NCBI GenBank assembly: GCA_005191425.1
Contig: SUPR01000064.1
Location: forward strand, 1 to 21,032
Source of the DNA: Candidatus Helarchaeota ASGARD archaeon Hel_GB_B
Lineage (GTDB): Archaea; Asgardarchaeota; Lokiarchaeia; Helarchaeales; HEL-GB-B
DNA: 21,032 nucleotides
Direction of reading: 5' to 3'
The position numbers and the translations under genes are program-made. Positions 2,294-16,213 of the stretch are shown here, one piece after another; the first letter of the stretch is position 1; every line of letters begins with the position of its first letter. The notes below the pieces were generated by a model. The model was not told the origin of the DNA. It saw only the letters and a list, made by a program, of their open reading frames with translations, and did no database searches.

Positions 2294-3427
2294 TTATATT
2301 TTATTTAATATATCAATAATTTTTTGGGTAATTTGTTCTGTTTTTGCAAATTTATTTTGTTGTTGATAAATTTTTGGGACTAGATCTTTAGGAATATAGC
2401 GCCAATTTTCTTTAAAATTTTCTAATAAAAGAAAATATTGTTTTATACTATCTTCTAATAATTTAGCTTCATCAAGTCCTAAATGTTCTAAAAGTAATTT
2501 TAAAGAAAGAATTGCAGCAATTGGGTTAGCTATACTAAGGCCTGCAATATCAGGAGCACTACCATGGACAGGTTCAAAGTATGGGTGTTTTGATCCAATA
2601 CAAGCACTAGGAGTTACTCCTAAACCACCAACTAATTCAGAACCTAAATCGCTTAAAATATCTCCATACTCATTTATAGTCAATAAAACATCTTGTTGTT
2701 CAGGAAATCTAATAAGTCTTCTAGCCATATCGTCAACATAATAGTCATTTATTTTAATTTTATATTTTTTAATATAATTTTGGGCAATAGAATAAGATAT
2801 TTCTTTAAATAATCCATCAGTAGCCATCATAACATTTGATTTGTGAACAATTGTTAGTTTACCTTGAAATCCTTGAGATTTACGTTCAACAGTTTTCTCA
2901 CAAGCTAATTTAGCTATACGTTTAGATTCATATTCAGTAATTATTTTTATGGCATAATGACCATTACTAGACTTAAAAAACCGTTGGTATTTATCTTCCG
3001 AGATAATTTCCTTCTTTACAAGTTCTTGAATATTGCCCTCACCTAGTCTAATTACACTATATAATCCTTCTAAATTTTCTCTAATAATTAGAAAATCAAT
3101 ATTATTAACATCTTTTAAGGGTGTTCTCAATCCTTTATATAGTTTACAAGGTCTAATATTTGCAAAATTATCAAGCCCAAATCGAAGATAGAGCAATACA
3201 TTTTTAGCTTTTGTATGAGTAGCTCCAAATAATATAGCATTTGAATCATCAATTGCTTCCTTGGTTTCTTGCGGGAACGTATCACCAAACATTTTTTCGG
3301 CTTGATCTCCAGCATATGCTTTTATTATCTCTATTTTTTGAGGTGCCAATTCAGTAAGAACTTTATATGCAGCATCAACTACTTCGATACCAATACCTTC
3401 TCCGCCAATTAAACAGATTTTTTTCAT
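2294..3427 (-). CDS. Isocitrate/isopropylmalate dehydrogenase family enzyme (LeuB- or AksF/homoisocitrate DH-like; NAD-type motif)
   Basis: GGEGIGIEV, LRFGLDNFANIRP, IRENLEGLY, VHKSNV..TDGLF, NEYGDILSD, FEPVHGSAPDIAG. Confidence 0.9.
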   Translation of the reverse strand: MKKICLIGGEGIGIEVVDAAYKVLTELAPQKIEIIKAYAGDQAEKMFGDTFPQETKEAIDDSNAILFGATHTKAKNVLLYLRFGLDNFANIRPCKLYKGLRTPLKDVNNIDFLIIRENLEGLYSVIRLGEGNIQELVKKEIISEDKYQRFFKSSNGHYAIKIITEYESKRIAKLACEKTVERKSQGFQGKLTIVHKSNVMMATDGLFKEISYSIAQNYIKKYKIKINDYYVDDMARRLIRFPEQQDVLLTINEYGDILSDLGSELVGGLGVTPSACIGSKHPYFEPVHGSAPDIAGLSIANPIAAILSLKLLLEHLGLDEAKLLEDSIKQYFLLLENFKENWRYIPKDLVPKIYQQQNKFAKTEQITQKIIDILNKI

Positions 3428-3470: not shown

Positions 3471-4631
3471 TTATTTAGTTAATTGTTTTATCTTATTTGC
3501 AATTGCATCGCCCACTTCACTTGTAGATGAGCTACCACCAAGATCATATGTCCTGATTTTACCTTCTTTCAATACTGCTTGAACTGCCTGATCAATTAAA
3601 TTTGAGCCCTTTTTTAACGTTGATTCGTCATTATTTTTCATTGATAACCAATCTAGCATCATTGCTCCGGCTAGAATTGTAGCAATTGGGTTAACAACAT
3701 TTTTTCCAGTATATTTAGGAGCACTTCCATGGAGAGGTTCGAACATTCCGTATTTGTCACCAACATTACCACTTGCAGCCATTCCGAGCGAACCCTGTAG
3801 TACTGCAGCTAGATCAGTCGCAATATCACCAAACATATTAGGTACAACACAAACATCAAACCATTCAGGTGTTCTAATTATCCACTGAGTAAACGCATCA
3901 ATAAAAGCATAATCTTGTTCTATTTCGGGATATTGAGGAGCGATCTCTTGATAAATTTTGCGAAACAATTTACAACCAGCAGTGACATTACTTTTATCGA
4001 CACAAGTGACTCTTAATTTTCCATCTTTTGGAGAACCTTTATTTCTCCGTTTACAATATTCAAATGCAAACTTTATAACACGTTCAGAACCTTTACGAGT
4101 AATAAGACGCACATCAGTTGCGATTTCAGTTTGACCGCCACGATTTAGACCACCATGAGTATCTGAATAAAGACCTTCTGTATTTTCTCTAATTGTTACA
4201 AAATCGACATTTTTAGGACTCCAAATATTGCGGAATTCTCCAGATATTTTGTGTTGAACCCCTTCAAAAAGTTTAGTTGGTCTAATATTTGCGTATAAGT
4301 CCAAACCAAATCGTAAGCCGAATAAGATATCTAATCCGACCATGCGTCCTGATGGATAAGAAACAGTTTTTCCTGTCTGTGGGTCAGTCCATCCAATTGC
4401 TCCTAATAGAATTGCATCGGCTTCATTTTTACATACATCAAAAACTTCTTTTGGCCATTCTTCTTTTTTTCCTGTTTTAAGATAATATTGTGCTCCACAT
4501 TCATATTCAATGAATTCAAAATTAATGTTATTTAGATTCTCTTCTACTGATTTTAAGACTTTTAACCCTTCATGTATGATTTCAGGACCAATTCCATCAC
4601 CAGGCAAAACTACTATTTTAAATTTTTTCAT
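3471..4631 (-). CDS. Isocitrate/isopropylmalate/tartrate dehydrogenase family enzyme (LeuB-like; KY coenzyme motif)
   Basis: LPGDGIGPEI, LRFGLDLYANIRP, IRENTEGLY, VDKSNV, NMFGDIATD, FEPLHGSAPKYTG, RTYDLGG. Confidence 0.9.
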   Translation of the reverse strand: MKKFKIVVLPGDGIGPEIIHEGLKVLKSVEENLNNINFEFIEYECGAQYYLKTGKKEEWPKEVFDVCKNEADAILLGAIGWTDPQTGKTVSYPSGRMVGLDILFGLRFGLDLYANIRPTKLFEGVQHKISGEFRNIWSPKNVDFVTIRENTEGLYSDTHGGLNRGGQTEIATDVRLITRKGSERVIKFAFEYCKRRNKGSPKDGKLRVTCVDKSNVTAGCKLFRKIYQEIAPQYPEIEQDYAFIDAFTQWIIRTPEWFDVCVVPNMFGDIATDLAAVLQGSLGMAASGNVGDKYGMFEPLHGSAPKYTGKNVVNPIATILAGAMMLDWLSMKNNDESTLKKGSNLIDQAVQAVLKEGKIRTYDLGGSSSTSEVGDAIANKIKQLTK

Positions 4632-12402: not shown

Positions 12403-13542
12403 TTAATTATAGATATTTACCATCTTTATTTTATTTCCTTCAATTTCATAGAAATAACCATGAGATTCTCGAATTATATTTTCAGCAATTCTTCTATGAC
12501 TAGGTCCACGGAGTCTTGCTTCAGAGGGCCATAATAAAATAGTAATAATTTTTTCTTTTAATAATTGTTGAGAAATTTCTTTTAATTCATTTTCAATTAT
12601 TTGATGATATTTAACATTGAAAAAAGGTGGTGGTGGTATATTACTTAATGGTACATTGCTCCCACCATCAGTTAAAATGACCAAAACTGGAATTATATTT
12701 TTATTGCGTTTTTGTTCTAACTTTAATACTTCCATTCCTTTTACCAATCCTGAAGCTAATGGAGTCCATGAATCTGAAGAGATTGTAGACAATTTATCTA
12801 CAACTAAATTTAAATTGACTGTTGGTTCGCAGAGGACAACTGCATCATAGCCTTGAAATACTACTAGTCCAACTCGATCGCGATGTTGGTAAGCATCATC
12901 ATGAAGTGATAAAATTACTTCTTTCATTTGCTTCAAAATTCTAAACATAGAGCCACTGGCGTCCAATACAAAAACAATGGATAACGGAGCTTGATATTGT
13001 AGGATTTTTTCACGTATATCAGGCATTTTCAATTTTACTGCTAAATTAGATTGTGAGGCTCTAGCTTTTTGATATGGTGCAGCTGCTCTAATTGTTGCAT
13101 CTAGTGCAATAGATTTTGGTTTATCATTTGGAATTTTATATTTAATATATTTTCCTTTATCAGTGTCACCAATTTGCTTTTTTCTTTTACCCAATGAAAA
13201 TTTTCTTTTATCAAGGGGAATATTCCTACTGTCAAATTTAAAAATATCACCAATTTTTTGATATTTTCTTTCCTTAAAAATAGGTTGAAATTCACTTTTT
13301 GGCTGGAAATCTTTGTCCTTAGAAAATGGATGTCCTAATTCGCCTTCATTAAAATCAGATTTTGAGTTTTTTGAGTTTTCTTGTTGTAAACTTGCAGAGA
13401 TTTCTTGAAAATCCCCACTCATTGCACCCTCAGTTTCTTCAGATATTTTATCTACATTTTCAGGTTGTTCTCCTTGAGATGAAGTTTGTGATTCCATCCC
13501 ATCTTGTTGTTCGACTGAATCTAGCTGCTCATTGTTTTTTTT
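12403..13542 (-). CDS. chlD: Chelatase ChlD/BchD-like C-terminal part: acidic linker plus VWA domain. Frame is open from 13542; first ATG 13497.
   Basis: [24 protein letters not shown] (MIDAS), [27 protein letters not shown]. Confidence 0.85.
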
Positions 13543-14609
13543 TTAATTTCAGGGTTTTCTTCTAAAGATTGTTGTATAGCTTGATTGATTTTTTCTTCAA
13601 TTTCACCAGGGCTTGAATATCCAAGTCTTCCTATTCTTGTTCTTAGGGCTAAACGAATCGCGGTTTCAACATCTTCTAATTGGACAATGGGATGTTTATT
13701 AAAAGCAGCAAGAGCTTTTGAGCACCTATTAATAGTAATTTCACCCCTATGGGTCTCTACATTTAATTTAGCACAAACTTCAACGATTAATTCCATGAGT
13801 TCTTGAGGCATTACAATATTACTTAATAATTTTTTAGCTTCAACAATTTTATTTTGAAGGTCTTGTTCTGCATCTTTAAATTTGTCTATAAATTGCTTGG
13901 GATTACTATCAAATTCATCTACATTTTTCAGAATTTTGAATCTTTCAGAAGTATCTTTGATAGACTTAACTTCAACTGCAAGCCCTAATCTGTCAAGAAT
14001 TTGAGGTCTTAATTCACCCTCTTCAGGGTTCATAGAACCAACTAAAATAAAATTTGAAGGATGAGAGACCGATACCCCTTCTCTTTCAACTATATTTACA
14101 CCAAAAGCTGCAGCATCAAGTAAGTCATCAATAATATGGTCGCTTAATAAGTTAATTTCATCTACATATAAAATATTACGGTTGGCTGAGGCAAGAATTC
14201 CCGGCTCAAGAGCTTTTGATCCCTCTCTAATGGCGCACTCAATATCCAATGAACCGACTACTCGATCTTCAGAGCATCCAATAGGCAGGTTCACAACCTT
14301 CATTGGAATTTTGATCGATTTTAATAGCCCATTTTTTGATTTTTCTATACATGTCGCACACCACTCCTCTGGATGATAAGGATCATCGTTGAAGGGACAA
14401 CCTTCATTTACTTCTATTTCTGGTAACAAATTTGCCAGTGCTCTTACAGCTGTTGATTTTCCTGTTCCTCTTTCACCCCTAATTAATACACCACCAATTA
14501 ATGGATTAATAACATTTAAGATTAGGGCTAATTTCATTTCTTCTTGTCCAACAATAGCTGTAAAGGGGTATATAAACTTTTTCAATTTATTAATACTTCC
14601 ATTATACAA
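13521..14609 (-). CDS. chlI: Chelatase ChlI-like AAA+ subunit (also the N-terminal half of a frameshifted chlD)
   Basis: [13 protein letters not shown], Walker A GERGTGKS, Walker [26 protein letters not shown]. Confidence 0.9.
13535..13544 (-). other. A10 slippery run at the ChlI/ChlD junction (-1 frameshift site)
   Basis: ATT AAA AAA AAA ACA ATG AGC AGC TAG in frame 0. The -1 frame is closed by TAA immediately before the run and is open after it (AAC AAT GAG CAG...) into the VWA ORF. Confidence 0.7.
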
Positions 14610-15713
14610 TTAGTTCTTTAGAATAAATCCAAATTAATGCCTTTTAAATATTAGTTCTAAAATTGCACATCTTTTCTTTATAAATATGGACATTTTCTTT
14701 TAATAAATTATAATTTTATAATTTTATTGGTTATCACTCTTAAATTTAAACTTGAAAAACAACATAAAAATTTTAAAAAAGTGCTAAAAATAGAATAAGA
14801 GAAAATTATTTAGTTAATTAAAGAATATTTGAAAAAATAAAATTATAACTAAATAAGAAAAACATGATCAAAAAAAATACTATACTATTGTTCGATAATA
14901 ATTTTTTTAATTTTATTGTAGAGAATTTAAAAAAAGATTGAGAATTAAAAGGGTTATTAATTATTATTTCTAAGGGGTTTTACCAAATTTGGATTCTAAG
15001 TCCGAACTAAATTAAGAATTATCTCCTTGTAAATTTATTTCTAGCTTTTTAATAGAGAATGCAATGTTTGATACTAAAATGCCATTATCTTTTTGCAACA
15101 TTAGATATCTGTAAATTGCATTTATTTACATTACTGTTATCATTATATACATTTTTTTTTAATATTTTCTTTACCCCTAATCGGTAATAACTGGCTTGAT
15201 GTCTGTCTTAATAAATGATATAATGGTCTTATAATCACAAAAGTTCTATCTATCGTAGACTTGCACCATAACTTAAATTATTTATATATTCCAATTTCAA
15301 GCAATGTCAAGCAATGTCTGAGTTATCAACTTGGTGTATATAGAACCTGAATTTTGCAATTCCTTGCAGATTGTTTTATTACTCTTATAATCTTGCAGTA
15401 AACCATATCTTTCAATGGCTTCTTGTGTTCTTATGCCACGATATCGGCATTATTTTTAATTAATTTTTAATCTATATTATATAATCTTTGTTGATGTACA
15501 TTCAATATCTTCTTTGAAGTATCATCTCTTACTATCTTGCGCTTTTTATCATAATTTCAAGAATGGTTTAACTAAATTGTATTTATACGAAAATGAGATT
15601 CCCGATTCCAATTATCAAATTATTTATGTAGACAATGAAATTAAATGGACAATACAACCTAAAAAAGATACTGAAAAGATGTTGGCCCCTGTTTACCCTT
15701 ATTTTAATTTAAC

Positions 15714-15944
15714 ATGAGCTAGAAGAATAAAAAAAGTATAATAGGTGGTGATAGGACTCTCTCTTCGTTGTTGATGGGTATTAAAAGCTGGAGCGCTACC
15801 CTTGCAACTATTGAAGAGTATAAGGAAACGATATTAAAATAATCTGCAAAGGAAAATTTAAAGGCATTTGATATCATCAAAAAATTGGAGAAACACAGGA
15901 CGATTTTAGAAATTATAATAAGTCAGTTTGATAGAAAAACTTAA
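15714..15944 (+). pseudogene. Probable gene remnant, 77 codons with in-frame TAG (15720) and TAA (15840)
   Basis: MS*KNKKSIIGGDRTLSSLLMGIKSWSATLATIEEYKETILK*SAKENLKAFDIIKKLEKHRTILEIIISQFDRKT*. Composition is protein-like and helical; family not recognised. Confidence 0.3.
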
Positions 15945-16213
15945 ATATTTTAAAATAAAAGTGTAAATTTCAGAAAAATTCAAGGACTTTATTTATAGAG
16001 GGTTTATAACTTCAATGAAATTATTAACCTAATGAAAAAACTTGCCTTGTGCTCTAAAAAGGCTTTCTTATAATAAGGAGGAAAGAGTAATCCTTTCCAA
16101 TGACACCGCTCAGTCTTTGTTGGTTGAAATTTTGAAATGATAATTAGCCTTGCAAAATTTAATAAGATAAAAAATATAATAATAATTAAAGGATGAATAA
16201 AGAATGAAATAAA

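Follow-up and report, generated by a model that had tools for sequence, protein, structure and literature searches.

A chlD-type gene of an Asgard archaeon, very probably recoded at an A10 run to yield ChlI-like and ChlD-like products

Frameshifted genes annotated as 'magnesium chelatase' have been described in Pseudomonas, Burkholderia, Delftia, Herpetosiphon, Methanocaldococcus, and Methanococcus, and reporters of this family showed frameshifting of 10 to 63%, with higher values on longer poly-A (Antonov et al. 2013, PMC3711429). The A_AAA_AAR site of the family is covered in a recoding review (Atkins et al. 2016, PMC5009743), and Kuznetsov et al. (2022, PMC9227772) reported 169 fs-chlD genes of both the -1 and the +1 type, noting as 'stage 1' those genomes that carry fs-chlD without a large subunit or a tetrapyrrole pathway. 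The class also appears in Antonov 2020 (MBE), as cited by Kuznetsov et al. (PMC9227772). A stimulatory structure downstream of the shift site is usual in fs-chlD genes and is not conserved in sequence (PMC9227772, PMC5009743). A related device operates in dnaX: in Thermus thermophilus the slippage is transcriptional, on a template run of 9 T with stops in both other frames, and in the 'reversed' dnaX of some bacteria it is the long product that requires the shift (PMC5009743). Runs of 9 A or T are efficient slippage sites for bacterial RNA polymerase (PMC5009743); in the literature examined, polymerase slippage is documented for bacteria and viruses, not for the archaeal polymerase. The original prediction for the locus described here had noted that chlD genes of some bacteria and archaea undergo frameshifting at A-rich sites, in agreement with this literature (PMC3711429, PMC5009743, PMC9227772), and had proposed that an Asgard instance would extend it; in the literature on recoded chlD genes, we found no paper naming Asgard archaea.

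The gene under study lies in what we call the window, the whole stretch of 21,032 nt that was analyzed, and its features are collected in Table 1. Translation of the minus strand confirmed the predicted layout, namely, an AAA+ open reading frame that stops four codons after AAA AAA AAA and a -1 frame that opens at the A-run, with a TAA at its edge, and continues into an acidic linker and a VWA domain. Across the run, the 0 frame reads GAA ATT AAA AAA AAA ACA ATG AGC AGC TAG (E I K K K T M S S stop). Since the TAA keeps the -1 frame closed right up to the run, this frame opens exactly at A10. Decoding without a slip gives a product of 362 aa; if the frame moves by -1 past the third AAA, or if the RNA carries an additional A, the product has 358 + 377 = 735 aa. 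These recomputed lengths match the approximate ones proposed originally, as does the trans-frame junction peptide, which by computation includes E-I-K-K-K-N-N-E-Q-L. The gene is solitary and convergent with a deoxyhypusine synthase gene, and 1.6 kb of mostly noncoding DNA lies upstream of it. This upstream stretch (window positions 14610 to 16213) contains no ORF of more than 73 aa and is unusually long for a noncoding stretch in the window; a whole-window Rfam scan, which included it, matched no family. The genome also encodes a full-length eukaryote-type actin (446 bits), which fits its placement in the Asgard Helarchaeales.

Table 1. Positions of the recoded gene, its two frames, and its shift site in the window
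Feature	Position	Strand	Description
Whole recoded gene	12403..14609	(-)	AAA+ module, acidic linker, and VWA; ~735 aa only with a -1 shift at the A-run
ORF1, 0 frame	13521..14609	(-)	ChlI-like AAA+ ATPase, 362 aa, the predicted short product
ORF1 start codon	14607-14609	(-)	TTG
A10 slippery run (putative shift site)	13535..13544	(-)	A_AAA_AAA_A in the 0 frame; codons 356-358, Lys-Lys-Lys
TAA closing the -1 frame	13543..13545	(-)	T preceding the run plus the first two A's of the run
0-frame stop TAG	13521..13523	(-)	Four codons past the A10 run; short-product tail T-M-S-S, nonconserved
ORF2, -1 frame	12403..13542	(-)	379 open codons; stop at 12403-12405; linker and VWA
Linker, acidic and low complexity	13213..13536	(-)	About residues 3-110 of ORF2, from the translation
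VWA domain	12664..12978	(-)	Intact MIDAS: D194-A-S196-G-S198, T260, and D292 of ORF2; Pfam VWA_2 and VWA

The upstream frame constitutes a complete ChlI-like AAA+ module, as the fs-chlD class demands. Its Walker A motif is intact (GERGTGKST, residues 45-53), residues 14-336 of ORF1 align with positions 1-324 of the 337 in the BchI-ChlI model TIGR02030 (418 bits), and further matches comprise the Pfam families Mg_chelatase, AAA_5, and AAA_lid_2 and, over the full length, the ChlI structures 8osf and 6l8d in the PDB (E value of about 1e-104). The downstream frame is a ChlD linker plus VWA, colinear with unshifted ChlD-type proteins. Its VWA domain matches that of BchD (PDB 2x31; E value of 2.4e-12), the MIDAS residues are invariant in a 7-species alignment, and the linker is poorly conserved in sequence yet present in every aligned orthologue. 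The two frames cover TIGR02442, the NCBIfam 'putative cobaltochelatase', consecutively, ORF1 at positions 1-338 and ORF2 at positions 319-591 (183 bits); ORF2 also matches positions 343-571 of TIGR02031. TIGR02442 is a hypothetical equivalog with a curated cut-off of 779 bits, and the sum of 462.9 bits for ORF1 and 182.9 bits for ORF2, about 646, falls under it. The gene likewise stays below the curated NCBIfam cut-offs for BchI-ChlI and BchD-ChlD. Judged by these scores, it is a member of the TIGR02442 superfamily and not of the equivalog.

The original prediction had suggested comparing orthologues for a conserved shift position. The gene is present in all seven species genomes of the order, and five of them require a -1 shift at one and the same site, T-AAA-AAA-AAA(A), with A10 in G000, G002, G004, and G006 and A9 in G001. 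The proteins of G001, G002, G004, and G006 are 50 to 76% identical to the window protein, and in each of these genomes, as in the window, a TAA precedes the run and the -1 frame opens at it. The 0-frame tails of the relatives end at a TAG 2 to 8 codons past the run, in codons unrelated to one another, and the flanking linker DNA is unalignable among the orthologues, so that only the A-run is conserved at the site. That a -1 shift is required both with the A9 of G001 and with the A10 of the window means that an indel within the tract has been compensated downstream. The ORF2 frame stays open for 369 to 379 codons in a 28% GC setting. Metagenome contigs added further -1 cases with A9 (L082), A10 (L084 and L087), and A11 (L086), as well as one in-frame variant (L083). 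The two remaining species of the order, G003 and G005, carry uninterrupted orthologues of 752 to 772 aa that are colinear with the recoded gene; that of G003 has an A11 run in frame with immediate stops in both other frames, and that of G005 has A9, A10, and A9 runs in its linker. Judging from these comparisons, the A-tract is kept in both frame states among sister species, and the recurrence of the site together with the -1 requirement is, at the sequence level, the decisive argument against chance.

Beyond the order, the gene was found in 138 of the 301 sampled genomes of the phylum. Poly-A forms requiring -1 occur in two more Asgard families (f10 and f25), and a +1 form at a conserved N-TTT-TTT-CGN site occurs in three (f18, f23, and f24). 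In the latter, the loci L054 (G067), L055 (G080), L056 (G088), L060 (G104), and L061 (G078) show a 0-frame stop 2 to 7 codons later, and the tree groups the +1 copies into a single well-supported clade. In another Asgard family, a single A is the only departure from colinearity between G259 (A10, needing -1) and G156 (A11, in frame); in the closed genome G265 the gene is in frame. Across a tree of 51 copies, the frame state changes at least 4 to 5 times. The Asgard occurrence extends to at least seven families and, with -1 and +1 forms in several of them, is thus widespread rather than a curiosity of one lineage.

Several side observations came from the same gene family and from the genome G000. 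In two genomes of genus g10 in family f4, 27 nt that include an in-frame TAA are inserted between EVYGK and IEKA(H/Y)EDP (G302, L057:2131-2205; G016, L058:2999-3073 and L040). Excising the insert restores colinearity with more than 20 orthologues, and a small hairpin can be drawn (GGUUUA / UAAACC or UUAAGCC), with MFE folds that were not significant; the insert may be a short tRNA-type (bulge-helix-bulge, BHB) mRNA intron. We rejected readthrough of this TAA in G016 and G302, the stop being located in a 27-nt insert that is absent from more than 20 orthologues; the case has no bearing on the window gene. At one position, shared by both, within a conserved AAA+ motif, G020 (L032, about 3060-3100) and G025 (L065, about 3530-3570), minus strand, have an insert of ~32 nt, not a multiple of 3; G020 has the 6-bp inverted repeat ATCCTA/TAGGAT, and the position is a candidate second mini-intron site in the gene family. 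For the window gene itself, a BHB mRNA intron of 3n+2 nt was rejected: there is no hairpin, the poly-A itself is conserved, and the in-frame sisters differ by a single A. In G000, an A9 run on contig C13 (L076:122-1347, plus strand) links a 212-aa frame that matches no Pfam family to the DDE domain of an ISL3-family transposase, encoded in the -1 frame; this may represent a broken IS or a transposase that depends on slippage. On contig C45 (L077:116-1937, plus strand), a T10 run follows a 328-aa frame and leads into a MatE domain encoded in the +1 frame; this junction may reflect an error in the homopolymer, a pseudogene, or a further site of slippage.

Collectively, we consider it very probable that the window contains one gene of the published fs-chlD kind, in which a slip on the A-run yields a short and a long product. 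Under this model, standard decoding across A10 would end four codons on and release the 362-aa ChlI-like AAA+ ATPase, while in a fraction of expression events a slip of one base on the run would carry synthesis into the linker and VWA and yield the 735-aa ChlD-like protein. The slip could be made by RNA polymerase, which would leave an extra A in the transcript, or by the ribosome, which would shift -1 on A_AAA_AAA. The short and the long products would then assemble into an AAA+/VWA motor of the ChlI/ChlD type, with their ratio set by the run. The sequence comparisons establish the layout of the gene, the site and its conservation, and the lack of a separate start in the second frame; from them we infer that both proteins are produced and at which level the slip would take place.

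The original prediction had pointed to a weak downstream pairing, GATTC/GAATC, as a possible stimulator. We rejected a downstream stimulator of this or another kind: the fold of the 120 nt after the run was not significant (z-score of -0.69), a consensus fold of 5 orthologues contained 0 conserved pairs downstream of the run, and no inverted repeat of at least 6 nt was found within 80 nt. The accessory trait of the fs-chlD class, a downstream stimulatory RNA structure, was thus not found at this gene, and if the shift is made by the ribosome, its efficiency may be low for this reason. Since the homopolymer alone is conserved, no downstream stimulator was detected, and the in-frame run of a sister species is flanked by stops in the other frames, we lean slightly toward RNA-polymerase slippage over ribosomal slippage. 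The retention of the tract in both states, which is the pattern of dnaX, likewise suggests slippage on a homopolymer that gives two products. A bolder version of this idea, which we put forward tentatively and hold to be rather unlikely, takes the tract for a ratio dial operated by RNA-polymerase slippage in a CobN-independent AAA+/VWA machine with a non-porphyrin client, and not for a chelatase device. The dial would alternate between A9/A10, where the long product needs a slip, and A11, where the long product is made by default and the short one by a slip.

The absence of a ChlH/CobN large subunit from the window, stated in the original prediction, held; a genome-wide search located the single cobN of the genome (1201 aa) on contig C92, where it overlaps a second, unshifted chlD paralogue. 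This paralogue is in frame, 595 aa long, with a short linker and no A-run of 8 or more. The operon-like locus (L012:5540-12338, minus strand) comprises the chlD paralogue and cobN, followed by genes for a URO-D-family protein and a 4Fe-4S ferredoxin-domain protein. Within the order, cobN was found in 4/7 genomes, always beside the second paralogue, and the window-type gene was found in 7/7. The suggested search for a separate chlI returned no stand-alone copy in any genome of the order, which leaves ORF1 as the only ChlI-sized subunit. Matches to ALAD (PF00490), CbiC (PF02570), and CbiX (PF01903) were absent from the genome, which is 93.7% complete, and the controls were positive in 6 to 11 reference genomes. 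Given that cobN was found in 4/7 genomes only and that ALAD, CbiC, and CbiX gave no match, we file the gene under the fs-chlD recoding class and do not count it among the demonstrated chelatases for Mg or Co. From this gene content, a classical role of that kind appears doubtful, and the gene product most likely forms an AAA+/VWA motor of the I/D type.

Four other explanations of the split had to be weighed. The run could be a heritable switch acting at the DNA level only, which replication slippage would flip between A10 (long product off) and A11 (long product on), as in phase variation. G156 and G259 differ by exactly the one A that such a switch requires, an in-frame A11 occurs within the window's own order (G003), and the tree calls for at least 4 to 5 changes of state. 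However, 5/7 species of the order, and the window species in six assemblies, are fixed in the -1 state; ORF2 would be silent in all of these, yet it is free of stops and retains an invariant MIDAS at 50 to 76% protein identity. Frameshifting of 10 to 63% by reporters of the same family (PMC3711429) also speaks against a switch confined to DNA, which we consider improbable. A miscalled homopolymer, with a true A11 and an ordinary uninterrupted chlD-type gene, is less probable again, even if runs of 10 are error-prone, the in-frame relative G003 has A11, and the assembly holds at least one further gene-like junction at a T10 run (C45, MatE). Reading A10 rather than A11 had been named in the original prediction as a point to verify, and A10 was present in six independent assemblies from different samples and pipelines (ENA, NCBI, JGI, and Logan), 99.87 to 100% identical to the window, though the look-up queried the exact ORF2 protein and hence returns the split form only, so that A11 alleles may exist in the population. 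An exact-pattern scan of metagenome contigs for this species (A8 plus 0 to 5 bases) gave no match, and near-identical records possibly lay outside the scan. Also against a miscall, the -1 requirement recurs in five species and in several metagenome contigs, whether the run is A9, A10, or A11; finished isolate genomes of other taxa are split in the same way (PMC3711429); and two long frames meet at just 10 of the 1876 runs of at least 8 in the genome. Runs of A or T of at least 10 are themselves depleted, with 55 in 3.54 Mb against the ~165 expected from the base composition of this 28% GC genome.

That two separate genes are present, a chlI-like gene and then a VWA gene starting at ATG 13497, 24 nt past the ORF1 stop, is how gene callers annotate the region, and an ATG does occur at codon 15 of the -1 frame in the window species. 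This ATG nevertheless aligns with a Leu in the same-genus relative, and the relatives lack an independent start of the second frame: their first ATG comes at codon 51 (G001), 152 (G006), 178 (G002), or 180 (G004), downstream of conserved motifs. In these four genomes, the run is exactly where the -1 frame opens, and the in-frame orthologues are single proteins. The case named in the original prediction as one that would count against it, relatives with two independently started genes and no slippery run, was thus absent. Two genes are for these reasons a very remote prospect, and some independent initiation at the codon-15 ATG is possible in the window species alone. Least probable of all is a decaying pseudogene, that is, a once-fused chlD broken by a one-base deletion. 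An intact second chlD paralogue beside cobN and the lack of a detected tetrapyrrole pathway would be compatible with decay, but both halves are stop-free with intact Walker A and MIDAS, and the same break is kept in five species at 50 to 76% protein identity. Based on these comparisons, we reject an error of assembly, independent initiation of two genes, and pseudogene decay, and retain a single recoded gene as the preferred reading.

Both the device and its logic have been published since 2013, and the Asgard occurrence extends the class without adding a new principle; it carries a documented recoding class into the archaeal phylum closest to eukaryotes. For annotation, a single recoded gene should replace the adjacent calls of a 'Mg chelatase-like ATPase' and a 'VWA protein', in many other Asgard genomes as well. 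The Asgard copies offer several solutions at one domain boundary, with -1 on poly-A, +1 on U6-CGN, and in-frame tracts, and the apparent retention of an I/D-type motor where no tetrapyrrole pathway was found bears on the role of 'chelatase-like' AAA+/VWA pairs outside chlorophyll and B12 synthesis.

Compared with the described systems, the gene is closest to the fs-chlD class, with which it shares ChlI-like AAA+ and VWA modules in overlapping frames and a -1 site on A_AAA_AAR or poly-A at the AAA+/linker boundary, by which short and medium subunits would be obtained from one gene. It differs in its Asgard host, in having no downstream structure, in the second, unshifted paralogue beside cobN, and in a tract that occurs in both frame states within the order. 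The ChlI/ChlD (BchI/BchD) motor of Mg-chelatase (PDB 8osf, 6l8d, and 1g8p; BchI-BchD complex, 2x31) resembles it in ORF1, the VWA domain, and the MIDAS; in contrast, the Asgard genome has no matches for ChlH, ALAD, CbiC, or CbiX, its cobN lies elsewhere with a D-like paralogue of its own, and the scores fall under the NCBIfam cut-offs. The tau/gamma pair of dnaX belongs to an unrelated protein family with a different function, that of clamp loader, and its level of slippage is proven in Thermus, whereas for the Asgard gene the transcriptional level is the one we slightly favor. Nevertheless, the two cases are alike in having two products, predicted here, that share the AAA+ N-terminal part, a ratio set by a homopolymer, and nearby stops in the other frames, and in both of them the two genotypes exist, with the long form made by default or by a slip.
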